Source of the DNA: Aquificaceae bacterium
GTDB taxonomy: Bacteria > Aquificota > Aquificia > Aquificales > Aquificaceae
Assembly (NCBI GenBank): GCA_039630345.1
Contig: JBCNVD010000005.1
Location: forward strand, 1 to 23,421
Length of the DNA: 23,421 bases
Direction: 5' to 3'
The notes under the pieces were generated by a model, which had not been told where the DNA came from, ran no database searches, and worked only from the letters and a program-made list of their open reading frames with translations. The position numbers were made by a program, and so were the translations under genes. Shown here in pieces: positions 454 to 23,421 of the stretch. Position 1 is the stretch's first letter; each line of letters starts with the position of its first letter.

Positions 454-1464
454 TTAGTATCTTATTACCGTCTTTTTAGGTTCGGTGTAGCCTTTTCTTA
501 GAGAATAGCCCTGAGGTGGATATATGCCATAGTAGAGGTTTTGAACGTGATTTCCCTCCACGAAAAAGCACCAGCGCTCGAGGAAGCTGCCAGCTACTGT
601 AAAGCCCAGGATGGGGGCTATAAAGATTAGCTCGTGGCGGCTGCTTATGAGGGCGTAGAATGTTAAGAATGTGGGGATTAGAAAAGTGATGATGTAAGAT
701 AGTGGCACTGCGGTGCTTAGGAGCTCTTTGCCTCTTTGGTAATAAAACTCTGTCGTGCAGTAGTTGTTTGTGGTCGAGCCGGTATCTATGACCCGCATGG
801 GTCTGTTGTGTGGCAGGTTAAGAGCTTCGTTTAGAGTTGGGTGTGGGATTGTAAATTGCCTTATGTTGAAAAAGAGCCTGAAGAAAAACCCAAGAGATAG
901 GAAAAGAGCTGTCAGGAAGAAAAACTCGCCTGAGAGCTGAGGGTAAAAGATTGTTGTCAAAACCCCGGTTGCGGGCGCGCCGAGCATTAAATACATATTA
1001 AGGTAGTAAAGCACTGTTAAGGAGCTATTCCATTCGGGGACAAATTTGTTGCTTGCGTATATCATAGCGGTTGAAAAACTGGATAGCCAGCCATTTATCA
1101 GGGTTAAAATCCCAAGAAGATGTTGCAAAAATAGACTCTGGTTTGAGTAGTAACTAAGGGCATATAAAAATAGCAAAAATCCATAGGTGCCACTAAAGAC
1201 CGCTTCGCGAGAGAGCCAGGAAGTATGAAAGCGCTTGATTGCCTTCCACGCGCGAAGTTTATGCCCAAGGTGGAAGCTTGCGCCTATGGCGCCAAGAGCT
1301 ATTAAAACCAGGGATGTTACTAAAGATATTAAAACCGCCTGCCTGGGCAGGGCGGTATTTTTACCAAAGAGACTCAAAAGCTCAAGGAAGTACACGAAGT
1401 TAAATAGCCCTATTGAGATCCCTGCGGTTATGAAAAACCATATTAGCGAAAATGGCGGGTGCAT
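454..1464 (-). CDS. soeC: DmsC-family membrane anchor of sulfite:quinone oxidoreductase (SoeC)
   Basis: MHPPFSLIWF N-terminus, SFHLGH..RAWKA....SWLSRE and ERWCFF...HVQNLYYG motifs; many TM helices; third gene of a Mo-enzyme operon. Confidence 0.85.
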   Translation of the reverse strand: MHPPFSLIWFFITAGISIGLFNFVYFLELLSLFGKNTALPRQAVLISLVTSLVLIALGAIGASFHLGHKLRAWKAIKRFHTSWLSREAVFSGTYGFLLFLYALSYYSNQSLFLQHLLGILTLINGWLSSFSTAMIYASNKFVPEWNSSLTVLYYLNMYLMLGAPATGVLTTIFYPQLSGEFFFLTALFLSLGFFFRLFFNIRQFTIPHPTLNEALNLPHNRPMRVIDTGSTTNNYCTTEFYYQRGKELLSTAVPLSYIITFLIPTFLTFYALISSRHELIFIAPILGFTVAGSFLERWCFFVEGNHVQNLYYGIYPPQGYSLRKGYTEPKKTVIRY

Positions 1465-1468
1465 CTTT

Positions 1469-2164
1469 TTATCCTCCTACATGATGTCTTCTCATGACTT
1501 CTAAAAAGAGGGGGTTTTCATGCTCAAGAATGTGCTCGTCCAGCTTTATGTCTGTTTCGGTGCGTGGAAGGTAGTGGTTAGCAGGGTTTGTGCCCATATC
1601 TGAAAATAGAACAAAACCGTTTCGCCTTTTAATCATTTGATAAACTTCGCTGTTTGGGTCTTCGATATCGCCAAAGAACCTGGCCTTTGCGGGGCATGTA
1701 AGGACGCAGGCAGGTTTTCTATGCTCCGGTGGCAGGGATTCGTCGTATATGCGGTCTATGCAAAGGGTGCATTTTTTCATAACTTTGTCCGCTTCGTCAA
1801 ATTCCCTGCAGCCGTAAGGGCATGACCAGGAGCAGAGCTTGCAACCTATGCAATCGTCGTAATTTACCAGGACTATTCCGTCCTGCTCTCTTTTATAGCT
1901 TGCACCGGTTGGACAAACAGGAACGCAGGGCGCATCCTGACAGTGAAGACAGGACTTTGGAAGATGAAAGACCTGAGTGTGGGGAAATTCTCCTACTTCG
2001 TAGGTCATTATGCGGTTATACCAAACCCCCTGAGGCTCCTTGCCATAGGGATCAAAGTCAGATAATGGTCCAAAAGACGCCTGGGTGTTCCACTCTTTGC
2101 AGTTAGTTGCGCAGGCATGACAGCCCACGCATGTGTTAAGGTCTATCACAAGCGCAAGTTGCAT
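1469..2164 (-). CDS. soeB: 4Fe-4S electron-transfer subunit (SoeB / DmsB family)
   Basis: Four Cys clusters: CVGCHACATNC, CLHCQDAPCVPVC, CIGCKLCSWSC, CTLC...CVLTC. Confidence 0.9.
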   Translation of the reverse strand: MQLALVIDLNTCVGCHACATNCKEWNTQASFGPLSDFDPYGKEPQGVWYNRIMTYEVGEFPHTQVFHLPKSCLHCQDAPCVPVCPTGASYKREQDGIVLVNYDDCIGCKLCSWSCPYGCREFDEADKVMKKCTLCIDRIYDESLPPEHRKPACVLTCPAKARFFGDIEDPNSEVYQMIKRRNGFVLFSDMGTNPANHYLPRTETDIKLDEHILEHENPLFLEVMRRHHVGG

Positions 2165-2179
2165 TTTATAACCTCCTTT

Positions 2180-5023
2180 TCAGGGTTTGTATCTAAGGAG
2201 CTCTGTCCAGCTCTCCTTGATGTGCTCAAGCGGTTTGACCTCAAACTGAGGCCAGGTTTCGGGTGTCTGGTCCTGGGCTTTGTAGACCTTTACTTTCGTA
2301 TCAAACCAGGCCAGATGTCCGGTTATTGGGTCTCCGTAAAAGACCTCTTTGGTGCCAAGTTTTATGCTATGGGGCACTACATGGTTTAGCAAGAATCCAA
2401 GAGAGCCCTCTTGTGCTTCAGGTTTTAATCCCCATGTGCCTTTCATTTTGCCTATTGCATTCCAGGTCCAGACAGAGTTTGGTTCTGTGGTGTTTGTTAG
2501 AAATACCTGGCATTTGACCTTTCCGGTGCGGGATTCTACTATCACCCAGTCAAGATGCTCTATGCCCAGCTCTTTTGCGGTTTTGGGGTTCATATATAGA
2601 TAGTTCCTTGTGGATATCTGTCTTAGCCAGACATTTTGAGAGTCCCAGGAGTGATACATCCATTGAGGGCGCTGGGTGAACGCATAGAGTGGATAGTCCT
2701 TGCCTGAGACTTCTTCCTCAAAAGGTGGATACCAGAAAGGTAGAGGGTCAAAGTACTTTATGAGGCGCTCTCTTAAAATAGGGTCGTTTGGTGGTTGATT
2801 TTTACCTTCCCAAAGTCCAAGTCCTGCGAGCCTGAATTTTTGCAAAGGCTCAAGGTAGAAGTTAAATATCATAGGGGCTACTTTTTTAATAAATCCAACG
2901 CCTGAAGCCCATTCCTGGTAGTCTTTGTTTGCTTGGCGATAGTATCTCATGTTTTCTGGCAATTTGTAGTAGAAAAATCCCCTGTTTTTAAGATACATCT
3001 CGAGCTGATTTGGATTTGGTTCACCTACGAAGTGTTTTTCGCCGTTTTTGCCCCTCCAGCCTGCCAAAGCCCCAACGCCCGGCCTTATTTGCCAGTTTAT
3101 TAAAAAGTCTTTGAAATCTTTGTATTTTCTTGAACCATCCTCATTTAGAAATGCAGGGAGCTTTAGTCTATAGCCAAGCTCTACCATTACATCGCCCCAG
3201 CCTTTGACATCATAGCCGTTGGCTTTGGGGTCTACTATAGGATGTCTTATAGCATCCACGGGTCCATCGACTGCTGAAGGCGGTCTATCAAGAAGAGATA
3301 GAGCAAACCACTGCTCCAGGTATGTAGCATCTGGAAAAACCAGGTCAGAATAGGCTACCTGCTCGCTATAAAAAGCATCTATGGTTATGATTTTGGGAAT
3401 GATGTAGTTTCCTGCCTGGTCTGTTGCCGTTAGCGCCTCAAGAATGTAAGGGATGTTTTGAGAGGAGTTCCATGCCATATTTGCCATATAGATCATCAAA
3501 ACCTCGATGGGGTATGGGTCTTTTTGATATGCGGCAGGGATGACATTCTGGATGCATCCGTGAGCAGCCATTGGAAACCACCAGCTATAAGCGTGGTCGA
3601 TTCTTATTGGTCTTCCTCTATCATCTACCAGCAGATCGTCAGGGGTTTGAACATAACCAAGATGGGGTCCAGGGTATGCCTCGCCATATTTAATCTGGTC
3701 TTGAGTTTTTATAACGTAAGGCTTTGGCAGGTCTTCTATGTGTTTTGGATATGGTGGTTTATTTAAAAAGCCTCCGGGCACATCGACGATTCCCAGCATC
3801 ATCATAAGCAGAAACACCGTTCTGGAGCTTTGAAAGCCGTTTGTATGAGAGCCTACACCCCGCATCATGTGGAAAGAGACGGGTCTACCTATGGTGTGTT
3901 TGTGCTTTCTACCCCAAACATCTGTCCACTCAATTGGCAAAATAGTGGGATGATAAAGGGCTATGGTGCCTATTTCTTTCGCAATGCGCTCTATATCTTT
4001 TGCGTCTATGCCGGTTATTTTTGAAACCTGCTCTGGAGAATACTCTCTTACCAGCCTCTCTGCGAAGATATCAAAGGCTGGTCTAACTCTGTAGCCTTCA
4101 GGGGTTTCAAACTCACCTATGAACGCAGGGTCTAGTTCATCTGGCACTATTCTGTCTGCGGGCCTGAATGTCCCTGACTTTTTATCAAATACCTGCGCCC
4201 TTCCCTCAGAGTCTTTGTAAAATAGACCATCTTTTGGTGTAGAAGGTGCCTTTATAACAAGCCAGGGGGCATTTGTGTACTCTTTTAGAAATTCCCAGTT
4301 TACCAGGTTGTATTTAAATAAAACATGCATCAATCCCATAAAGAAAGCGCCGTCTGTGCCGGGCTTTATCGCTACCCATTCATCCGCAACGGCTCCATAG
4401 CCCCAGCGAACCGGGTTAACCACTACAAACTTTCCGCCTTTTCTTTTCATTTCCTGAATGCCGAGCTTAAAAGGATTAGAGGAGTGATCTTCCGCAACGC
4501 CTATGAGCATAAAGTATTTAGTGTTTTCAAAGTCGGCTTCGCCGAATTCCCAGAAAGAACCCCCAATTGAGTAAAGACCCGCTGCGGCAATATTCACAGA
4601 ACAAAATCCACCATGAGCTGCCCAGTTGACTGTTCCAAGCTGGGAAGAAAACCAGCTATTTATTTGCTGCATCTGGTCGCGACCTGTAAAAAACGCTATT
4701 TTATGAGGGCCTTTCTTTCTTGCCTCTTCTATCCAGCTGGCTGCTATTTCAAGGGCTTCTTCCCACTCTATTTCTTTAAATTCACCAGAACCTCTTGGAC
4801 CTATGCGCAAGAGGGGCTTTTTGAGTCTTGCAGGGCTATACTCTTTCATAATTCCAGAAGAGCCCTTTGCACACAGAACCCCTCTGTTTGTTGGGTGAAG
4901 GTCGTTTCCTTTGATATAGGTAACTTTGTTATTTCGAACATAAACTTCTATACCGCACCTGCAGGCACACATATAGCAGGTGCTATAAGCTTTTCTATCA
5001 TAAAAGCTACCGCCTATTTCCAT
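2180..5023 (-). CDS. soeA: Molybdopterin (Mo-bisPGD) catalytic subunit, SoeA-type sulfite dehydrogenase
   Basis: N-terminal TCYMCACRCG..LC 4Fe-4S motif, FFTGRDQ, AAHGGFCSVN, MYHSWDSQN; no Tat leader (cytoplasm-facing); AAGGAGG RBS. Confidence 0.88.
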   Translation of the reverse strand: MEIGGSFYDRKAYSTCYMCACRCGIEVYVRNNKVTYIKGNDLHPTNRGVLCAKGSSGIMKEYSPARLKKPLLRIGPRGSGEFKEIEWEEALEIAASWIEEARKKGPHKIAFFTGRDQMQQINSWFSSQLGTVNWAAHGGFCSVNIAAAGLYSIGGSFWEFGEADFENTKYFMLIGVAEDHSSNPFKLGIQEMKRKGGKFVVVNPVRWGYGAVADEWVAIKPGTDGAFFMGLMHVLFKYNLVNWEFLKEYTNAPWLVIKAPSTPKDGLFYKDSEGRAQVFDKKSGTFRPADRIVPDELDPAFIGEFETPEGYRVRPAFDIFAERLVREYSPEQVSKITGIDAKDIERIAKEIGTIALYHPTILPIEWTDVWGRKHKHTIGRPVSFHMMRGVGSHTNGFQSSRTVFLLMMMLGIVDVPGGFLNKPPYPKHIEDLPKPYVIKTQDQIKYGEAYPGPHLGYVQTPDDLLVDDRGRPIRIDHAYSWWFPMAAHGCIQNVIPAAYQKDPYPIEVLMIYMANMAWNSSQNIPYILEALTATDQAGNYIIPKIITIDAFYSEQVAYSDLVFPDATYLEQWFALSLLDRPPSAVDGPVDAIRHPIVDPKANGYDVKGWGDVMVELGYRLKLPAFLNEDGSRKYKDFKDFLINWQIRPGVGALAGWRGKNGEKHFVGEPNPNQLEMYLKNRGFFYYKLPENMRYYRQANKDYQEWASGVGFIKKVAPMIFNFYLEPLQKFRLAGLGLWEGKNQPPNDPILRERLIKYFDPLPFWYPPFEEEVSGKDYPLYAFTQRPQWMYHSWDSQNVWLRQISTRNYLYMNPKTAKELGIEHLDWVIVESRTGKVKCQVFLTNTTEPNSVWTWNAIGKMKGTWGLKPEAQEGSLGFLLNHVVPHSIKLGTKEVFYGDPITGHLAWFDTKVKVYKAQDQTPETWPQFEVKPLEHIKESWTELLRYKP

Positions 5024-5209
5024 CCTGTGACCTCCTTAATGAATATCAACTTATACACCTTTAAACCATTCGTAATTTGAAGTTTTTATAACATTATAAC
5101 TTTTTTTTATCAGAGCTATAAATGGCGGTTATGCTATAAAAATGCAAGCCGATTTCAACTTTACAGGAACAACATAAGATTACCTGTTGAAAAGTAGCGC
5201 TTTTTGAAA

Positions 5210-5238
5210 TTGACACAGAGTTGCAATTGTATTATCCT
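5210..5238 (+). promoter_or_regulatory. Sigma-70-type promoter of the porin operon
   Basis: TTGACA (5210-5215), 17 bp spacer, TATCCT (5233-5238); AAGGAGGT RBS follows at 5247-5254. Confidence 0.7.
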
Positions 5239-5258
5239 TATTTACCAAGGAGGTGGTA

Positions 5259-6656
5259 ATGAAAAAGGCGATTCTTTTGCTTGCTCTTTTAGCAGGTGGA
5301 AGCTATGCCCAAGCAACCGACGAGCGAATAAGGTCTCTAGAGGAGCAAATCAAGATGCTCCAGCAAGAGGTGGAGCGCCTCAAACAGGAACAAAGAAGGC
5401 TGGACGAGACAAAAAGAGACACGGAAGCCATAAAAGAGGAGCTTCGTCAGCTAAAGCTCGATGTTGCGCTACCCAAACTTGAGATTAAGTCCTATTCTGG
5501 ATTAGGACCATCCGCATCAAAGGTTCACTTCACTCAAAGAGGGGTCTCAATAGGCGGATATGGAGAGATTTACCTCTATAGGAGAAACAGCGTAGACGCA
5601 AGAGGCGGGGCAAAGGCAATATCAAACCTTCAGCGCATAATTTTGTATCTTGGCTATAGCTTTGACGAAAAGCTCAAGTTTAATTCAGAGCTTGAATTAG
5701 AGCATGCATCGACCCTTGCAGACCACGGAACAGGAGGGGCTTACTTTAAAGCTGAGCTTGCATACATTGACTATAGCTACAGACCAGAGCTTGGCTTCAG
5801 AGCTGGACTTTTGCTTATGCCGGTTGGCATAATCAATGAAATTCATGAACCTCCAACATTTCCCTCCGCAGAGCGACCCTTCTTTGAAAGAAGAATCGCT
5901 TTAAGCACCTGGGAGGAGATGGGTGCAGGAGTTTACGGAACCGTTGGACCTGTTGATTATAGACTGTATGTCATTAACGGCCTTATGCTAAGAGGGGGAG
6001 GGGGATATAGCGTAGAAGAGCCTATTAAAAACTTCCGTCAAAGGGGCGCAAGGGCAGTTGCTGAAAAACTTGGTTTTACTGGAAGGGTAGATGTTGACCT
6101 TCCGTTTGGACTGATGGCTGGTGGTTCCTTTGTTGTTTCTGATGTGCAATCCAAAGGAGGAAACGACTCTCAGCTAAGACTTCGCAGAGGCACCAAAGTA
6201 GGCAGTGTCAGCATGCTATTTCCGCATCTCTGGTATCAGGATAAGGGATGGGATGTGAGGTTTGTTGGTGCTTTTATATCTGTCAGTGACCCGCTTCAGC
6301 TCTCAAGAGACCTATTTGGAAACAACATCCAGAGCGGTAGCAGAAACATCAACAACATAATACCCAAAGAGCAAAGAGGGTTTTATTTGCAAGTAGCTTA
6401 TGATATTTTCAGGCTTTTAAATATCAGCAACCAGGAGCTTTATCTTTTTGGCATATACGAAGACTTTGACACTCACGCCAAGGTGCCTGCAGGCTTTAGC
6501 AAACCACCGGGGCATAAGCTAAAGGTTTACAATGCAGGAATTTCCTATAAACCCCACCCGCTTATAGCTCTTAAAACTGACTATGCAAGACTTAACTATA
6601 GCGCGCCAAGGCGCGACGAGGATGAATATAGACTCATGATAGGTTTTATGTTTTAA
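5259..6656 (+). CDS. Outer-membrane beta-barrel porin (porin O/P-like) with N-terminal coiled coil
   Basis: Start moved to ATG 5259 for RBS spacing. Signal peptide MKKAILLLALLAGGSYA, heptad coiled coil, GGYGE...RIILYLGYSF...FNSELELEH...HEPPTF motifs, C-terminal aromatic (IGFMF). Confidence 0.75.
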   Translation: MKKAILLLALLAGGSYAQATDERIRSLEEQIKMLQQEVERLKQEQRRLDETKRDTEAIKEELRQLKLDVALPKLEIKSYSGLGPSASKVHFTQRGVSIGGYGEIYLYRRNSVDARGGAKAISNLQRIILYLGYSFDEKLKFNSELELEHASTLADHGTGGAYFKAELAYIDYSYRPELGFRAGLLLMPVGIINEIHEPPTFPSAERPFFERRIALSTWEEMGAGVYGTVGPVDYRLYVINGLMLRGGGGYSVEEPIKNFRQRGARAVAEKLGFTGRVDVDLPFGLMAGGSFVVSDVQSKGGNDSQLRLRRGTKVGSVSMLFPHLWYQDKGWDVRFVGAFISVSDPLQLSRDLFGNNIQSGSRNINNIIPKEQRGFYLQVAYDIFRLLNISNQELYLFGIYEDFDTHAKVPAGFSKPPGHKLKVYNAGISYKPHPLIALKTDYARLNYSAPRRDEDEYRLMIGFMF

Positions 6657-6662
6657 ATCACC

Positions 6663-7223
6663 ATGAAGATAGTATTTTTATTGCTTGCACTCTTCTTTGA
6701 GCTTGCGCTTGCCCACGGTGGCGGCGCAGGCAAAGTAAAAGAGATAAAAAGACCTGAGCAGGCTCTTTCCCAGATTTATCCAAACAGCACTCTCGAGGTG
6801 CAAAACTTTACGCTAACTTACGAGCAAATTCAGGAAGTTCAAAGACTTTCGGGTATGAAACTCGATAGCAGATTAGTATCCTGGTATTTGGTAAAAAAAG
6901 GGGGGCAAATTATAGCCTATGCTTTTGTTGACATACATAGAGTAAGGACTCAGCCGGAGGTGATACTTTACTGCATAAAACCAGATGGCAGGATTGATGT
7001 GGTGGAGGTCCTGGCTTTTTATGAACCCCCTGAGTATGCACCTGAAGACAAATGGCTTGCACTGTTTGTAAACAAACAGCTAGAGCGAGATAACCTGCGT
7101 CTTCGCAAAGACATTCCAAACATTACAGGTTCTACCCTCACAGCAAGGGCTATAACAGACAATGCAAGAAAAGTGCTGGCTCTCTGGCAGGTTTTATTTT
7201 CTCAAAGAACTTCCCAGCAATGA
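6663..7223 (+). CDS. Exported FMN-binding domain protein (predicted covalent flavinylation substrate)
   Basis: Signal peptide ending ALA; ITGSTLTARAI resembles the [S/T]GA[S/T] ApbE flavinylation motif (codons 7125-7136). Confidence 0.75.
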   Translation: MKIVFLLLALFFELALAHGGGAGKVKEIKRPEQALSQIYPNSTLEVQNFTLTYEQIQEVQRLSGMKLDSRLVSWYLVKKGGQIIAYAFVDIHRVRTQPEVILYCIKPDGRIDVVEVLAFYEPPEYAPEDKWLALFVNKQLERDNLRLRKDIPNITGSTLTARAITDNARKVLALWQVLFSQRTSQQ

Positions 7224-8140
7224 GATTTTTTATAAGTGCAAAAATAAAGCAAAACCCTGTTTTGTATGTGTCAGTAATTGCCTTTATCGTCTTTAGCTTT
7301 TTGCACTGGCTTTTTTCCTGGTTTTATTTCTATTCCAAGTATGGCTTTAGTAAAGAGAGTTTGATGATTTATTACTGTTTAGACCCGATAGAGCCTCAAA
7401 GACCATCGCTTGCTCAGCTTTCAGAGGATATGCATGTTGGACTTTTTATACATTTTATGTTGATTATAGTTCTTCTTTCGATTCTTGCTACTGTTTCTGG
7501 CTTAAAGTTTGCGGTTTTTATCTCGATTCTTGTTTCTTTTCTTGCAGGTTTTTATGTTCTTTCTGATGTTATTATATACTTTTTCTGTTCAAAAGCCGTT
7601 ATGTTAAAGCTTTTTTCTTTTATTCTGTATCAGATAGTTCTGATATTTTCAATACTTCTGACCGGCTTTAAGCTCCATTTTGGAAATTCAAAGCCACCCA
7701 AGACAGGGTTTCTCAGGTTGATAGTTGGGATATTCGCTGGCTTCTCTTTTATCTTTTTGTTAGTTAGTGCGATGAACTTCTTTCTAAAGATGGGATTTAG
7801 CGTTCAAGGTATAAAAAATTACTACCTTGGCAACAGCGAGCTACTGATAAAGCCAAAGACAATAGACGGCGTTATGAAGGTTGCCTATCCTCATGTTGTT
7901 GCAATGGCTGTTTATTCTCTTGGCCTTTCTCACTTGCTTGCTTTTACAAAAATTCATACATCAGCCGCAGTTTTTTTGGGAGTTTTCACTTTTGTTTTTT
8001 CTTCTGTTGATAATATTTCCAGTATTTTGATTTTGTTAGATGCTGGCTTTGTCTATCTTAAGTTAGTTTCCTTTGCTCTTTTTCAGGTATTTGCGCTATT
8101 TGGCTCTTTTATTTTGATGTTTTCTACCCTCCGAGCATAA
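7220..8140 (+). CDS. Polytopic inner-membrane protein of two homologous halves, unknown function
   Basis: About 8 hydrophobic segments; ATGA coupling to the upstream gene; halves share GFS.....YY...P.......H pattern. Confidence 0.7.
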   Translation: MRFFISAKIKQNPVLYVSVIAFIVFSFLHWLFSWFYFYSKYGFSKESLMIYYCLDPIEPQRPSLAQLSEDMHVGLFIHFMLIIVLLSILATVSGLKFAVFISILVSFLAGFYVLSDVIIYFFCSKAVMLKLFSFILYQIVLIFSILLTGFKLHFGNSKPPKTGFLRLIVGIFAGFSFIFLLVSAMNFFLKMGFSVQGIKNYYLGNSELLIKPKTIDGVMKVAYPHVVAMAVYSLGLSHLLAFTKIHTSAAVFLGVFTFVFSSVDNISSILILLDAGFVYLKLVSFALFQVFALFGSFILMFSTLRA

Positions 8141-9113
8141 ACATTTCCAGTCTTTTCTGGTTTTTGTTTTGTGAGCGTTCAAGAGAGTATTTGTCGGCTC
8201 TTTTTTCCCAGAAGTTTTTAATTGAGTTTAAAAGCTGAGTATCGCTTGCGCCAAGGCGCATAAGAGTTTTAATATCAAGTCCTTCAGATGCATAAAGACA
8301 TCTAAATAGCTTTCCGTCCGCACTCAGTCTTATTCTGTCACAGTCCATACAAAAAGGCTTTGTGATAGAGGATATGAATTCAACTTGTTGACCGTTGATA
8401 AGGTATGAATAGCTAACCTCTCCTGCTTTTCTCTCTTTATGTGGCAAAACTTCAAACTGGTTTTTGAATTCCTCTATGAGCTCCTGTGAGCTAACTACAA
8501 GTTCCTCGCTCCAGCCGTTTAATGTCCCAACATCCATAAACTCTATAAACCTGATTACAACGCCCCAGTTTTTGAAAAATTTGATAAAATCGGCGGCTTC
8601 TTGACTATTTATACCTCTTATTAAGCATACGTTTATCTTTACAGGTTTTAAACCAAGTTCAACGGCTCTTGATATTGCGCTTAACAGATATGAGAGTTTT
8701 ATATCCCTCCCTGATAGTTTTTTTAAAACATCCTCTCTCAACGAGTGCAGGCTAAAGGTCACTCTTGTGAGTCCTGAGTTTTTTAAGACGCTTGCTTTTT
8801 CTAAAAAACCAGTGCCGTTTGTGGTTAGTGTAATCTCTTTTAAGTTCAGAGAGGAGAGCTTTTCCACAAGGAGCTCTAGGTTTTTCCTAAGCAGTGGTTC
8901 ACCGCCTGTTAGTTTGACTTTACTAACGCCAAGAGATTTAAGAACTCTTACGACTCTTTCTATCTCTTCAAAGCTCAAAATCTCTGACTTTTTGAAAAAC
9001 TCGTAATTTTGGCCATCTGGCATGCAAAAACTGCATCTTAGATTGCATCTATCGGTTACGGATAGTCTCAGGGTCTTTAGAGGTCTTGAGAGGGTATCTC
9101 TTAGCTCACCCAA
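8124..9113 (-). CDS. moaA: GTP 3',8-cyclase MoaA
   Basis: Radical SAM CNLRCSFC, LTGGEPLLR, C-terminal CMDCDRIRL...C cluster and terminal GG. Start probably TTG 9113 behind AGGAG (ORF track extends to 9149). Confidence 0.95.
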   Translation of the reverse strand: MGELRDTLSRPLKTLRLSVTDRCNLRCSFCMPDGQNYEFFKKSEILSFEEIERVVRVLKSLGVSKVKLTGGEPLLRKNLELLVEKLSSLNLKEITLTTNGTGFLEKASVLKNSGLTRVTFSLHSLREDVLKKLSGRDIKLSYLLSAISRAVELGLKPVKINVCLIRGINSQEAADFIKFFKNWGVVIRFIEFMDVGTLNGWSEELVVSSQELIEEFKNQFEVLPHKERKAGEVSYSYLINGQQVEFISSITKPFCMDCDRIRLSADGKLFRCLYASEGLDIKTLMRLGASDTQLLNSIKNFWEKRADKYSLERSQNKNQKRLEMFMLGG

Positions 9114-9517
9114 GATTCGCTCCTGTCTCCAAAGATTTCTTTTTTCCATATAGGGGCTTTTAACTTTACTTCGTTGACAACAAATTCACAACCTTTAAAG
9201 CACTCTGCTCTGTGTGAGCCAAAGACCGCAACCATAAAAGACTCCTCTCCTACATTCACCTGCCCTATTCTGTGATGGATAAATACCTCTATAAGGCCAA
9301 AGCGCTCTATAGCCTCGGCTCTTATCTTTGACATAACCTCTATGGCCATCTCTTCGTATGCTTCGTAAAAGAGCATTCTGACATCTCCATCTTCCGGTGC
9401 GCTTCTGGCAATTCCTAAAAAAATCACACTGGCCCCGCACTCTTTGGGGGGTAAATAATGATTATTTAAAGCTCTAACGCCAAACCACTCAATGCCTATA
9501 TAGACCCTTGGCAACAC
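9101..9517 (-). CDS. moaE: Molybdopterin synthase catalytic subunit MoaE
   Basis: GASVIFLGIAR, YEAYEEMA, HRIG, HRAE, APIWKKE motifs; adjacent to moaA. Confidence 0.93.
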   Translation of the reverse strand: MLPRVYIGIEWFGVRALNNHYLPPKECGASVIFLGIARSAPEDGDVRMLFYEAYEEMAIEVMSKIRAEAIERFGLIEVFIHHRIGQVNVGEESFMVAVFGSHRAECFKGCEFVVNEVKLKAPIWKKEIFGDRSESWVS

Positions 9518-17828: not shown

Positions 17829-17902
<74 letters not shown>

Positions 17903-17920
17903 CTTAAAACCCTCTTAAAT

Positions 17921-18065
17921 CAAAGCCTTGAAAATAGTCCCTTTTAAAAGCCTTGTCTTCCAATGGGATTGTTTGCAAGGCCTTGAGTATCAATGGTCTG
18001 AATAACCCATTAAAACCCATAAAAACCCGTAGTTCCTGGTTCAATCTTTGAGGTATTTTTGAGGT
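17921..18065. repeat. Cluster of short direct repeats downstream of tRNA-fMet
   Basis: AA(A/G)GCCTTG-N5-CAATGG at 17947 and 17977 (partial third copy at 17922); three 10-mers AATAACCCAT/TAAAACCCAT/AAAAACCCGT at 18001-18030; TTTGAGGT at 18047 and 18058. Confidence 0.7.
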
Positions 18066-18101
18066 TTCCAGGTCTTGATACGCAATAGCTTGAAAGGCAT
18101 A

Positions 18102-18192
18102 TTTTAAGGTCTGGATGTTTAGGGTCTTAAAAATGGTTCTGAGCCTTATCCACCAATGTTTTCCTATGTTTCTGGCTTTCCAGACCTTAAAA
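18102..18192. repeat. Perfect 14-bp inverted repeat, 63-bp spacer
   Basis: TTTTAAGGTCTGGA (18102-18115) and TCCAGACCTTAAAA (18179-18192). Confidence 0.8.
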
Positions 18193-18576
18193 ACCGGTCT
18201 CCAAAAACACGGGCTATGGCTAGTTTGAGCCTCTCAGTTCTATTTTCCTTTAGATTGGTCTGACATTCCATAGATCTTTGCTTAAAACCTTAAAGACTAT
18301 TATCTCTTAGTAGGTTGTGAGACTTCACCTGATGAGTGTCTATTTATATTGTATTTACTGTGTTGTGATTGCTGCTTTCTAAGCAAAATATAGCTGCATA
18401 AGAGCGTGCTTTAAAAATTTCCTGACCCTGCCTGCCTTTTTTCTCTCCTCATATATAGGCTTAGGAGCAACCTATCGTAGAACTGTTGACATGCGACCGT
18501 TTTTATGTATATATTTGACATTGTCCAATGGGAGGTGTCAATTATGATTGAAAGTGGCTTTTCTAAAGGAGGTGCT

Positions 18577-18716: not shown

Positions 18717-19112
18717 ATGATAGAGGCAGAGATTCAAGCAATGCTTGAAGTGATGAGACACGCTGTTTTAGCGGATGGTCAGGTCCATCAGAAAGAAATA
18801 GAAATCCTAAAAAGAGTATCAAAAAGCCTGGGCGTAGAAATAACACCTGAATCAGAGAATAAATCCCTGCATAGTTTAGAAGAAATCTTTTCTAAGATAA
18901 AAAACAAAGAGATGAGAGCGCAGGCTCTGATTATGTCCTTAGAGATAGTCTCTGCCAGTGGAGAAGTTAGAGAAGCCGAGAGGTCGTTTCTTAGAAAAGC
19001 GTGCGAGCTTAGCGGACTAAGCGATGAAGATACGGAAAAATTTATTAAGATTGCAGAAAATATAGCACAGACCAAAGCGGAGCTTTATAGTTTATTGAAC
19101 AAATCTCTCTAA
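18717..19112 (+). CDS. TerB-like family protein
   Basis: AGGAGG RBS; duplicated TerB motifs AVLADGQVHQKEIEIL and IVSASGEVREAERSFL...LSGLS. Confidence 0.75.
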   Translation: MIEAEIQAMLEVMRHAVLADGQVHQKEIEILKRVSKSLGVEITPESENKSLHSLEEIFSKIKNKEMRAQALIMSLEIVSASGEVREAERSFLRKACELSGLSDEDTEKFIKIAENIAQTKAELYSLLNKSL

Positions 19113-19122
19113 GAATAACATA

Positions 19123-19566
19123 TCAGATATACTTTCTAAGTAGCTCCAGTGCAGTTCTTGCGGCTTTTCTATTTAATTCTTTCGAGCTTTCTGGTAATTC
19201 TTCATAATCTACTACATGAGGGTCAGTCTCTTTTGTCCAGCCTTGAGCTCTTCTTTTTTCAAGCCAGAGACTGTGTACACTTCTTGCCAGTTTTTCCAAT
19301 GTTTGTGACGAGTTATCAATCCTCTCCAAGCTGATGCCCGCAAGCTGAAGAAGTTTAGGTATTTCTCTTACAAACATCCTGTCTAGCTCTTTTTCTTCTT
19401 CTGGCAGGTCCTTGTAAGGAACGAGGCTCGGATGTGTCTTTTTCTGATTATCCTTTACTGGCCCATAAGTCCAACCCTGCGCTAACTTCTCCCCCATCCA
19501 TACTTTGTGGAGCTCCTCAGCTATAGCCTCAACGAGCTGTGGGTCTTCCCAGAAATTTTTCATCAT
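19123..19566 (-). CDS. Stand-alone tandem RyR (ryanodine receptor repeat) domain protein
   Basis: IAEELHKVWMGEKLAQGWTYGPVKDNQKKTHPSLVPYKDLPEEEKELDR, plus second copy LARSVHSLWLEKRRAQGW...PHVVDYEELPESSKELNR. Confidence 0.9.
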   Translation of the reverse strand: MMKNFWEDPQLVEAIAEELHKVWMGEKLAQGWTYGPVKDNQKKTHPSLVPYKDLPEEEKELDRMFVREIPKLLQLAGISLERIDNSSQTLEKLARSVHSLWLEKRRAQGWTKETDPHVVDYEELPESSKELNRKAARTALELLRKYI

Positions 19567-21314
19567 GGCTTCGCGTAATCTTTTAATATAGTCAAAAGGT
19601 TTTCTCTTATCGGCTTTTTATTATACTCTTCTTTCTCTTCTTCCTTGATTTTTTGGTAATCGAAGTTACACTTTTTGTAAGCCTTCAGCTTTTCAAAGTC
19701 CCTGAGCAATGTTCTCTCTCTGAGGTATCTTTTGAACTCTAACTCTGCCAGGAGGTCAACGATTTTTTCGTCTTTCAGGGCTTTTTCTATATTTTGTATA
19801 TACTGCAGGGTTAAGTCTTTTTTTCCATTGAAATAGCTATCTATAGCTCTTAGCTTTTCCCAAATGTGGTCTGCGAGATTTCTATTTGAGTTTCTGTAAA
19901 CTTCAGAGAGGTTTTCCCAGAGGTTAATAGCTGGCTTTTCTGAGGACTTCATATCAAGCTCTTCTCTATACTTCTCCTTCCTCAGCTCTGCGTCAACTTC
20001 CCAGAGGCTATCCACAGGTATGTTAAAGAATGCTCTAAGATAGCTAAGATGGCAAAGCTCTGCCATTTTGTCCAGTTCATTCCTGTTTAGAAGAGACGAT
20101 ACCGCGAGACTATACATATTAAAGGAATGCTCTCCCTCTCCCTGCATATAGTGTTGAGAGTATAAACTTATCACCTTTACTCCTTTCTCTGCAGAAAGTT
20201 CTCTTCTCAGTCTTTCTGTTTGTGTATCTTCCTGAGTACACAGGATTATAGCCTGAGGTTTTTCTTCTCCAATTCCAAGGTCCTGAGATGAATTTATAAG
20301 CTCGTATCTTTTCTGTAAAACTTCAAGGTCAAAACCCAGAGCACTAAATAGATTCATACCATCCATTACAAAGCGAGAGTCTACAAATTCCTTTATTTCC
20401 TGTGCCTTAGGTCCTACAAGGGTAAGTCTAAGCCTCTTTTCACCCGGGTAGACCTTATACTTAAAAGCCTGCCAAAGTAGCGCAAGCCCTGCTTCAGAAG
20501 TGCCTATTATTATAATCCACGGCTTCTCCACTCTGTTAACACCTTGGTCAAGAGGCACTCTAAGAAAGAGACTTCTTGCCATTTCCTCATAGAGGTTTAT
20601 GTAAGAAACTTCAACCTTTCCTATCCATCTGGATGTTTTATCATAATGATGTTTTAACGAGTAGTCTACTATGTGAACGAAGGTTTTATAGTCCGCATTT
20701 ATCTGTGATGCAACCGCTTGAGACATGTGGATATTTTTCAGGTCTTCCTCAAAAATAAGAAACATACCTGCAGACCTTCCGACGCCCAGAGCTCTATCAA
20801 GTGATTTTTCAGAAATAAGAACAGAACTGTCAGAGATAAGGTAGGGAATACCAGCGGTTTTACAGTAGGTTATATGAGGGTTTTCCCCGTTTTCTTCAAG
20901 CACTATAACTTTTTTACCACTCTTTTTGAGCGCTTCTATTAAATTAACCGTAGCTTCTGAAAGCCCACACACAATCCAGTGTTCCCTGTAAAAATGGCTT
21001 GCCCAGAAAAGCCTTAGTCTGTCTATAAAAAAGCCAATCAGAGCTCCTGCAGACAGAGCTATGAACAAAGTAGGCGCCAGAGTTTTTGAAATTTTGAGAT
21101 AAATATTATCCGCACCTTCTGGAAGACTTTCTATGGTAAATACCTGTAGTGTGTAGTAAACTATGCTAAGAAAAATGCCAAGAGTGTCTTTAAGTTCCCG
21201 ATTTTCCCTAATCCACAGCAGTAATCCGTAGATGTTTGTTATTAATATGATTACAAATATAAGAAGCCACAATGTAACCCAGTGGTGCTTTGCATAAAGT
21301 AGTATAAATCTCAT
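19563..21314 (-). CDS. 2TM channel-like protein with two RCK/TrkA-N domains and C-terminal RyR-like region
   Basis: TM1, pore-helix-like YYTLQVFTIES, TM2; Rossmann starts HWIVCGLS and IIIIGTSEAG; C-terminal MAELCHLSY...WENLSEVYRNSNRNLADHI...LAELE. Confidence 0.75.
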   Translation of the reverse strand: MRFILLYAKHHWVTLWLLIFVIILITNIYGLLLWIRENRELKDTLGIFLSIVYYTLQVFTIESLPEGADNIYLKISKTLAPTLFIALSAGALIGFFIDRLRLFWASHFYREHWIVCGLSEATVNLIEALKKSGKKVIVLEENGENPHITYCKTAGIPYLISDSSVLISEKSLDRALGVGRSAGMFLIFEEDLKNIHMSQAVASQINADYKTFVHIVDYSLKHHYDKTSRWIGKVEVSYINLYEEMARSLFLRVPLDQGVNRVEKPWIIIIGTSEAGLALLWQAFKYKVYPGEKRLRLTLVGPKAQEIKEFVDSRFVMDGMNLFSALGFDLEVLQKRYELINSSQDLGIGEEKPQAIILCTQEDTQTERLRRELSAEKGVKVISLYSQHYMQGEGEHSFNMYSLAVSSLLNRNELDKMAELCHLSYLRAFFNIPVDSLWEVDAELRKEKYREELDMKSSEKPAINLWENLSEVYRNSNRNLADHIWEKLRAIDSYFNGKKDLTLQYIQNIEKALKDEKIVDLLAELEFKRYLRERTLLRDFEKLKAYKKCNFDYQKIKEEEKEEYNKKPIRENLLTILKDYAKP

Positions 21315-22240
21315 TCTGTGTTCTCTTTAATCCTTTCTTTTATTTGAGATAGAATCTGCACAAATTTTGGTTTAGCTTTATCAAGCTCATGTTTTTGAAT
21401 TACAGAGACAGCCTGATTATAAAGCTCCTTTGCTTTATCATGCATGTTGATGCTTTCATAAAAATCCGCTAAATTCTTAAGACTTTCTATGTAATTTTCA
21501 GCCCACCTTTGTGGGTTTTCTTGGTATAGTTTTTCCACAGTATTCAGAGCTTTATTGTGGAGCTCTTCGGCTATGCTGTAGTTTTCGAGTTCTTTGTGTA
21601 CAATTCCAAGGTTGTTAAGGTTATCTATGTAATATTTAACCCATCTCTGTGGATTTTCTTGATAGAGCTTTTCTAAAATGCTCAAAGCTTTAGTATGAAG
21701 TTCTAATGCTTTTTCATAGTCTTTCAGTTCTCTGTATGCAATCCCAAGATTGTTAAGGCTTTTTATATAATGCTCCGCCCATCTTCGTGGATTTTCCTGC
21801 CATAGTTTTTCTGTAATCTTTAGAGCTCGGCTATGAAACTCTACAGCCTTTTCAAAGTCTTTTAGTTCTCTGTATGCAACCCCGAGCTCGTTAAGGCTAT
21901 TTGTATATCTCTCAACCCATCTTTGTGGATTTTCCTGATAGAGTTTTTCTCTTATACTCAACACTTTCTCATATAACTCTATGGCTTTGTTGTGATTGTT
22001 GAGGTCTACGTATGCATTTCCAAGGTTGATAAGAGTGCCTGTATATCTCTCAACCCATCTTTGTGGATTTTCCTGATAGAGTTTTTCTCTTATACTCAAC
22101 GCTTTCTCATATAACTCTATGGCTTTGTTGTGATTGTTGAGGTCTTTGTATACAAGTCCAAGATTGTTAAGAACGTTTGTGTAACTCTCCGCCCATCTTT
22201 GTGGATTTTCCTGATAGAGTTTTTCTCTTATACTCAACAC
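21311..22240 (-). CDS. Residual open TPR-repeat ORF (C-terminal part of the disrupted gene)
   Basis: Six 46-aa LYQENPQRW...LNNLG..Y repeats; in frame with the upstream fragments; stop overlaps the next ATG. Confidence 0.5.
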   Translation of the reverse strand: MLSIREKLYQENPQRWAESYTNVLNNLGLVYKDLNNHNKAIELYEKALSIREKLYQENPQRWVERYTGTLINLGNAYVDLNNHNKAIELYEKVLSIREKLYQENPQRWVERYTNSLNELGVAYRELKDFEKAVEFHSRALKITEKLWQENPRRWAEHYIKSLNNLGIAYRELKDYEKALELHTKALSILEKLYQENPQRWVKYYIDNLNNLGIVHKELENYSIAEELHNKALNTVEKLYQENPQRWAENYIESLKNLADFYESINMHDKAKELYNQAVSVIQKHELDKAKPKFVQILSQIKERIKENTE

Positions 22241-22345
22241 TTTCTCATATAACTCTATGGCTTTGTTGTGATTGTTGAGGTCTACATATGCAAGTCCAAG
22301 ATTGTTAAGAACGTTTGTGAAATCCTAAGCCCATTTTTGAGAGTC
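21380..22345 (-). repeat. About seven tandem 138-bp TPR-coding repeats
   Basis: GTGG(A/G)TTTTC anchor at 21511, 21649, 21787, 21925, 22063 and 22201, exactly 138 bp apart; the three rightmost anchored units share a near-identical block of about 85 bp. Confidence 0.92.
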
Positions 22346-23421
22346 TTTTATATAAAGACTTTCTATTTCACCTAATAAGCTTTCATAAACTCTTATAGCC
22401 TCATTGGTAAAGTTTATTTTTCTCAAAAAGGTACCAAGTTTTAATCTAAAAGCTATACTATGTTCTACAGCCCAGTTCAAAAGCTCATAAATTAGTTTGT
22501 TTCTTCTCAAGTATAGAATGTATCTGGTGAGCTCTACGTTGTCTTCTATTTTTAACATATCCAGCAGAAGATTTTCATTGCAAAGCACTTTTAAGAATAG
22601 CTCGCTATCTTTTAGTTCATATGCTTGCCAAGGGAGCTCTCTGTGTGCTTTTTGTGTGTCCTTTAAATTTTCTTGCTGGTAGTATTGTATTAGTGCCTTT
22701 CGGTATGTATCTCCAGCTTTAAAAACCTCATACCTGTCCTCTATGGCCCTCTCCGCGTGTGCATGGGCAGGTTTTAGATATCCATTTATGTCTATTAGAT
22801 ATTCGTCTACTGCAAGTAAGAAAGTAGAAAGACTTTTCCTGCTTATTGGCCTTTACAAAGATGTTTCTAACACTTCCAAAAGCTCACTTTCAGAAAGTCC
22901 ATCTCTTGAAACCTGTAAGAGAACGAGAACATCTTTAACAAAATCTCCATAGTCCTTTTCACATCTTTCAAATATCTTCTCAAAAAGGTCGTCTACGGTT
23001 TGAATGCTTAAAAGCTCCTTTATTTTGTCCGTAAAACCTCTGTAATCTCCAAATATTCTTAGTTCTTCAAGTAGTGCCTTCAAAAACAAAACTCCACAGT
23101 GGTGCATTGAGAATAAGCTCCATTTGATTTTCATCCAGCTTTTTGCCATAAGACGAAAGGTAATTTTCCGATATATTCCTGTGCTTGATTCCTATCAAAA
23201 CCTTTAAGCTCAAGGGTCTTCTCGGGTTCTATGTATATCTTCTGAAGCGTGGTGTCAGGAAGATGTCGAACGCCTCTTCGGAAGTTTTGGTGTAAGCCAG
23301 CTTAAGTTTCTCCATGTTTCTGGAAAGAGCCGGTCTACTGCGTCGAAAAGGATGATAACTTTTTTACCTTGCTCTGAAGCGGTGTATAGCAATTCTACAA
23401 ACCTATCTCTCAAAGATTTTT

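Follow-up and report, generated by a model that had tools for sequence, protein, structure and literature searches.

Organization of the locus

The stretch of DNA analyzed here (the window, 23,421 bp) is the entire contig C37 (GenBank JBCNVD010000005.1) of an Aquificaceae genome (GCA_039630345.1, here G000; 1.16 Mb, 96% complete). One end of it carries a cassette of three genes on the minus strand: the 3' two-thirds of a STAND-TPR gene of the NACHT/NPHP3 type (21311..23421), which is broken and cut by the contig end, a gene for a channel-like protein of 583 amino acids (aa; 19563..21314) and a gene for a 147-aa protein with tandem ryanodine receptor (RyR) domains of the Repeat12 type (19123..19566). 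The first gene, called the sensor below, was recognized by its TPR repeats and by weak HTH_NWD1 and NPHP3_hel matches, the second by an AlphaFold model, a fold search and a family profile, and the third by Pfam family PF02026. An initial annotation, made from the letters alone, had described a three-gene unit joined by ATGA overlaps. The overlaps were confirmed at 21311..21314 (sensor stop and channel start; 21314-21311 on the coding strand) and at 19563..19566 (channel stop and RyR-protein start; 19566-19563), as were the open reading frames (ORFs) 19563..21314 and 19123..19566.

Profile searches with the channel and the sensor covered 178 genomes of the phylum. Full-length channel matches were found in three of them (G000, G091 and G097), all other matches being to the first RCK region alone, and the sensor was found in four. 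The unit is conserved, with the order sensor, channel, RyR gene and the tight, overlapping junctions shared by G091 and G097. In G091 and G100 the DUF4062-encoding start of the sensor gene was found at the end of a contig, and the link in G091 thus spans contigs. RyR was detected in one of 61 genomes, which is G000 itself; single-protein pattern scans of contigs from genomes and metagenomes returned no relatives. The neighbors of the cassette differ among the four genomes (DHQ-synthase-like, TatD-like or MurJ-like genes, named from sequence reading), as expected of an accessory cassette. The G+C content of the channel gene (0.39) and of the RyR gene (0.43), compared with 0.38-0.45, marks neither as foreign. 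Contigs of related strains (three runs of one hot-spring study; 80-99% similar DNA, mostly less than 95% alike to the window) showed differences in the RyR and channel genes in 21 of about 800 rows, with 9 synonymous changes against 12 non-synonymous ones; a set this small and this selected does not lend itself to conclusions on selection.

The RyR-RyR protein

The 147-aa protein contains two RyR (PF02026) stretches (E 1e-32), as initially annotated. The first of its repeats has H20, W23, K38, H45 and D62 in place; H98 and W101 remain in the second, where the loop is short and the Asp is absent. RyR Tad (gp68) of phage vB_PatP_CB1 binds 3' cyclic ADP-ribose (3'cADPR) at 43 nM via H129, W132, K147, H154, K170 and D171 (10.64898/2026.06.04.730250). 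The 147-aa protein is 51% identical to it over 49 aa and matches five of the six binding residues, all except K170. Its spacing is also that of RyDEP, in which H75, W78, H100 and D117 stand at +3/+25/+42. Phage RyR proteins are reported to bind or cleave 2'/3'cADPR; RyDEP itself cleaves cADPR isomers and was crystallized with linear ADP-ribose (ADPR), and among eight of its homologs six bound signals and none cleaved them (PMC13232231). The kept residues therefore predict binding rather than catalysis, and the 147-aa protein probably binds an ADP-ribose-type product, judging from its residues.

The initial annotation had the STAND protein signal to the channel, with RyR-RyR contacts modulating the latter. 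The three-gene unit and the N-terminal effector of that proposal hold. The role of the RyR domains is recast here: since the residues that bind cADPR-type signals are kept, a reading of these domains as nucleotide pockets is preferable to one as sites of protein contact.

The channel-like protein

The AlphaFold model of the 583-aa protein (pLDDT 94, pTM 0.90) shows two long N-terminal helices (residues 2-38 and 71-108) around a short, pore-helix-like one (44-57), two Rossmann-type domains of the RCK kind (about 111-400) and a helical tail. In a Foldseek search, full-length GsuK was the best match (E 2e-8), followed by TrkA, Slo and CASTOR; the TM-scores are about 0.37, so that the likeness is domain-wise. 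At the sequence level the protein has a weak TrkA_N match (E 5e-4, below the cut-off). Its family is large (1,520 representatives at E ≤ 0.001), and the family profile matches TrkA/GsuK in the region of the first RCK domain and RyR Repeat12 at its end. Of the architecture first proposed, a two-transmembrane (2TM) pore followed by RCK-RCK and RyR, the 2TM-RCK-RCK part is thus borne out by the model and the GsuK fold. The RyR-like tandem tail (residues about 411-581) is seen only at the family level, Pfam detecting no RyR in the 583-aa protein itself.

The filter of K+ channels carries the motif TVG[YF]G. G[YF]G is absent from all 81 channel rows, and the corresponding stretch in the window reads TLQVFTIESL. 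Its QVFTIES may resemble the filter of bacterial sodium channels; the family column varies, and profile searches of PDB and Pfam lent this no support, the profile of the transmembrane part alone giving no match in either. The pore is probably not K+-selective.

The second RyR repeat of the family keeps a His in 105 of 112 rows and a Trp in 93. At the distant loci described below, which were selected by a motif of their first RyR repeat, the His is present in 77/77 and the Trp in 70/77 rows with a tail, one truncated row having been dropped. The window channel departs from this, its second repeat being without the family His/Trp pocket. All three local channels (G000, G091, G097) are without the following GW and loop motif, and two of them are also without the His; in all three the RCK1 motif no longer has GxGxxG. 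The His, Trp, His, Asp pocket is thus present in the 147-aa protein and absent from the tail of the local channel, and this separation of pocket and channel is the one distinctive feature of the window copy. The local channels and four database proteins, whose tails likewise are without the loop, form one long-branched group in a FastTree tree that is composition-biased.

Three relatives of the channel (P0125, P0135 and P0102) carry two to four RyR domains per chain, resembling a fusion of the channel with the free RyR protein.

The sensor gene and its orthologs

The initial annotation had counted a NACHT-like NTPase-TPR gene as the third minus-strand gene of the operon. In the window it is not an intact ORF. 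When the frame is aligned to the G097 ortholog (37% identity over 513 columns), in-frame stops appear at 22855-22853 and 22327-22325, and the frame changes near 23250, 23168 and 23095, the homology shifting to the two remaining frames from about 23250 to 23095. The only open ORF with a start codon comprises the last 309 codons, which encode TPR repeats (21311-22240). The contig stops near the Walker B region, so that Walker A and the N-terminal domain fall beyond its end, and the missing part is on no other contig of G000.

The gene could still be intact in the organism if the breaks were assembly errors near the contig end. All five lesions lie less than 1.1 kb from that end, and strain contigs have indels at 23168 and 23090-23096, the sites to which frame changes map. 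Such errors are nevertheless an unlikely explanation: two of the five lesions are stop-codon substitutions, the remaining genes of the window are whole ORFs, and the strain contigs, being mostly less than 95% alike to the window, represent other alleles and not errors. A pseudogene is more likely than an assembly error, and the window copy of the cassette is probably decaying. With its sensor broken, it is a poor test object.

Orthologs elsewhere are whole. Intact sensors of 951 aa consist of DUF4062, an NPHP3_N/AAA_16/NACHT region and TPR. In P0151 and P0153, which have this layout of N-terminal effector, STAND NTPase and TPR sensor, DUF4062 occupies residues 3-91; the N-terminal effector domain postulated outside the window is thereby found in the orthologs. 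An ELE motif in the DUF4062 of both aligns with a conserved Glu column, and the Glu-containing TxLEI column is kept in full-length sensor rows; this Glu would be equivalent to E108/E1008 of the characterized proteins, whose sequences stand outside the alignment. The G097 sensor is open across the 573 codons available. Profiles of Avs1-5 did not match over their full length, the best being a weak Avs2 match in one of three orthologs (E 2e-6, 108/1499 positions).

The TPR units (21474-22339) form a 138-bp repeat with 70-79% DNA identity, and strain contigs show many joints there, which suggests repeat shuffling within this region of the sensor.

Channel neighborhoods across phyla

Distant loci of the channel family were examined in the best 80 of 189 confirmed loci, with flanks of 0.2-20 kb. 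Recurring domains were identified with Pfam and then counted with profiles built from the same domains. Six partner domains were scored: TIR was present at 23 loci, DUF4062 at 9, STAND at 11, RelA at 7, SLOG at 10 and another RyR protein at 18. TIR or DUF4062 occurs at 27/80 loci, which span 12 phyla and are scattered on the tree. A TIR-like ORF lies within 1 kb of the channel in 20/80 cases and a STAND gene within 1.5 kb in 7/80. At least one of the six domains is found at 36 of the 80 loci. Against genome-wide TIR_2 counts, available for 50 loci that were chosen by the authors and are mostly the longer ones, TIR was present at 17/50 with 0.6 expected, or 1.4 when every first-look candidate is counted, a large gap even though the observed and expected numbers come from different profiles and the kin are not independent. 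The co-occurrence of STAND-TPR genes with the channel, which the initial annotation implied, does exist (11/80); the main recurring partner is the TIR-like domain instead (27/80).

Large RelA/SpoT-TPR-SLOG-RyR fusions occur near the channel at seven of the 80 loci (L036:7526-10432, L050:12421-15144, L052, L063, L070, L094 and L095) and are a possible second RyR-read output, making an alarmone. Two 847-aa proteins with a C-terminal RyR domain, one also with a weak AAA match, are convergent on the channel gene (L034:11691-14234 and L035:903-3446). At L057:1206-19893, four genes of the DUF4062-STAND type, carrying WD40 or TPR sensors, flank a single channel gene, that is, many sensors and one channel. 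NUDIX genes recur at three loci (L050:11861-12403, L094:13440-13868, L101:2297-2704) and could clear ADP-ribose.

Proposed circuit and alternatives

From gene order, domain content, residue states, neighbor enrichment and the sensor breaks, all of them directly observed, a circuit is proposed to which we give about an even chance: the NLR-like sensor cleaves NAD+, the RyR pockets bind the ADP-ribose-type product and the GsuK-like channel opens. A trigger, probably a phage protein, would be bound by the TPR repeats, upon which the NACHT domain would oligomerize. The N-terminal DUF4062 would then convert NAD+ to ADP-ribose or a cyclic variant, as suggested by other DUF4062 proteins: DUF4062 is a TIR-like NADase that yields ADPR and nicotinamide and acts against phages in the STAND-TPR context of Avs2 (10.64898/2026.05.01.722283, 10.64898/2026.09.04.749371). 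To go by the kept residues, the product would be bound by the RyR pocket. In most of the family this pocket would lie in the channel's own tail; in the window lineage the channel appears to have lost it and the separate RyR-RyR protein to have retained it. That protein may be a sensing subunit able to detach, or a buffer that sets a threshold. The RCK ring would open the pore, which is probably not K+-selective, and the ion flux would add growth arrest to the loss of NAD. The fold relative GsuK is opened by ADP and NAD+ (PMC3510474).

Several findings weigh against this circuit. The characterized DUF4062 systems kill by NAD depletion alone and need no second effector, according to the same two preprints. 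Neither TIR nor DUF4062 was found by profile elsewhere in G000. The GxGxxG motifs of the local channel are lost (GLSEAT, GTSEAG), while they are intact in 63/77 and 61/78 distant rows; with both the RyR pocket and these motifs gone, how the local channel would be gated is unclear from its sequence. None of the six partner domains occurs in the available flank of 44 of the 80 loci. Many of the TIR neighbors are fused to FGE-sulfatase, CHASE2, HSP70 or WD40, unlike ThsB of Thoeris. The neighborhoods also speak against a classic defence-island setting, immediate neighbors rarely being known defence genes: at a threshold of 1e-12, PADLOC matched 12 of 185 immediate neighbors outside the partner clusters, a helicase, FtsH and an ankyrin protein among them, with several of the matches generic, in a set in which some called ORFs may be spurious.

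Some of these points would suit a self-sufficient, Avs-like defence in which the DUF4062-STAND-TPR protein depletes NAD, the RyR protein serves the host as a sponge or glycosidase that keeps leaked signal low, and the channel is a passenger or does no more than restore ion balance. PsAvs2, Vulcan and Swarozyc work via NAD depletion, phage RyR proteins either soak up or hydrolyze the signals, the 147-aa protein keeps the His/Asp dyad, and the ligand motifs of the local channel are eroded. Such a system is nonetheless unlikely, because it is the channel, not the free RyR protein, that accompanies TIR-like genes constantly from phylum to phylum, because the pocket His is kept throughout the distant rows (themselves motif-selected on the first RyR repeat), and because the channel is translationally coupled to the sensor. 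The scarcity of known defence genes around the channel loci, many of which lie among housekeeping or signaling genes, fits a general stress or metabolic role that links NAD turnover to membrane potential. The gating of GsuK by ADP and NAD+ would agree with such signaling, and the channel and RyR proteins fit no PADLOC model. A purely non-phage role is all the same doubtful in view of the patchy presence (3-4/178), varied surroundings and sensor decay, which are typical of accessory defence cassettes, and of the NACHT-TPR and DUF4062 domains, which are defence domains where tested.

A scheme without a small-molecule messenger, in which the STAND protein signals and the RyR-RyR protein then gates the channel through contact between RyR domains, is improbable. 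RyR domains do dimerize via helices 1 and 4 (PMC13232231, 10.64898/2026.06.04.730250), and each of the three local channels, whose pockets are eroded, has an RyR gene next to it, the three being kin and not independent. The conserved RyR residues, however, are those of the ligand pocket, both local RyR-bearing proteins are tandem repeats able to self-pair, and the enriched NAD-cleaving neighbors point to a nucleotide.

If the proposed circuit of NADase, RyR pocket and channel is carried beyond this locus, a widespread bacterial and archaeal channel family may be gated through RyR Repeat12 by ADP-ribose signals made by TIR or DUF4062. This extension is tentative, and somewhat more doubtful than not. 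Phage RyR sponges would then be mimics of this family as the receptor of the host, and the family would offer a simple system in which to model how cADPR acts on animal ryanodine receptors, a matter of dispute; in the window lineage the receptor would be split off as an RyR subunit, and DUF4062 would be a signal maker and not only an NAD sink. RyR domains have so far been characterized in phage counter-defence proteins and as a ligand-binding part of animal calcium channels, and a host channel with the same pocket beside NAD-cleaving enzymes would, if true, be the missing receptor side. In a small prokaryotic protein one could then test for channel gating via Repeat12 by a messenger of the ADP-ribose type, and the circuit, if true, would reveal whether DUF4062 NADases signal. 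The window locus itself carries less weight in this, its sensor being broken; its split into an eroded channel pocket and a free RyR protein separates sensing from gating.

Relation to known systems

The cassette shares with Thoeris, especially type X (TIR plus the ion-channel effector ThsK; 10.64898/2025.12.03.692087), an NAD-using TIR-like enzyme beside a membrane effector expected to respond to the product. The enzyme here is DUF4062 on a NACHT-TPR body and not ThsB, there was no Ths match in PADLOC, and the TIR profile found no TIR in G000. In its proposed mode of action the cassette is Thoeris-like, yet it is not a member of that system, as ThsB is missing. ThsK was compared by description only; the available main text of the type X preprint does not mention RyR, RCK, TrkA or DUF4062.

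With PsAvs2, Swarozyc, Vulcan, Vesta and Evangelion (DUF4062/NIR), the orthologs share an N-terminal DUF4062 and probably the conserved Glu, and with PsAvs2 also the order DUF4062-STAND-TPR. Those proteins act via NAD depletion, and the sensor body here resembles NPHP3/NWD1. Neither RyR nor a channel is mentioned in the available parts of three 2026 DUF4062 preprints. RyDEP and RyR Tad have the PF02026 domain in common with the 147-aa protein, which unlike them is host-encoded, tandem and in an operon with a likely signal maker and a channel. That the RyR gene is a phage-encoded anti-defence gene was rejected, the contig being bacterial with housekeeping genes around. GsuK, MthK and Slo (PMC3510474) share the 2TM-pore-RCK-RCK layout; the channel here adds an RyR tail, is without G[YF]G and is 12-16% identical to them. 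Full-text searches turned up no account of an RyR-RCK channel of the host together with TIR or DUF4062 partners, and a prior computational mention is possible; the system is not described in the available parts of PMC7016017 and PMC8195603.

Other features of the window

A tRNA-Met (CAT; 17829..17903, plus strand), present as initially annotated, is the likely edge of the accessory region. It does not directly adjoin the operon: 1.2 kb separate the two, a distance that includes a TerB-like gene and a 63-aa ORF. No integrase, att repeat or site, or structured RNA was found in this interval. After the tRNA, about 600 bp are free of ORFs (17904-18500) and contain a perfect 14-bp inverted repeat (18102-18115 / 18179-18192) without an Rfam match. 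The TerB-like gene (18717..19112, plus strand) is convergent on the operon and sporadic (3/178 genomes). It is probably no member of the unit, its G091 copy lying on a different contig with unrelated genes around; there (L124:1447-2895) it sits among uncharacterized helical membrane-type genes. The other end of the window (454-9517) holds a molybdopterin oxidoreductase cluster with catalytic, Fe-S and DmsC-type anchor subunits, MoaA/MoaE and three poorly annotated genes (5253-8140).

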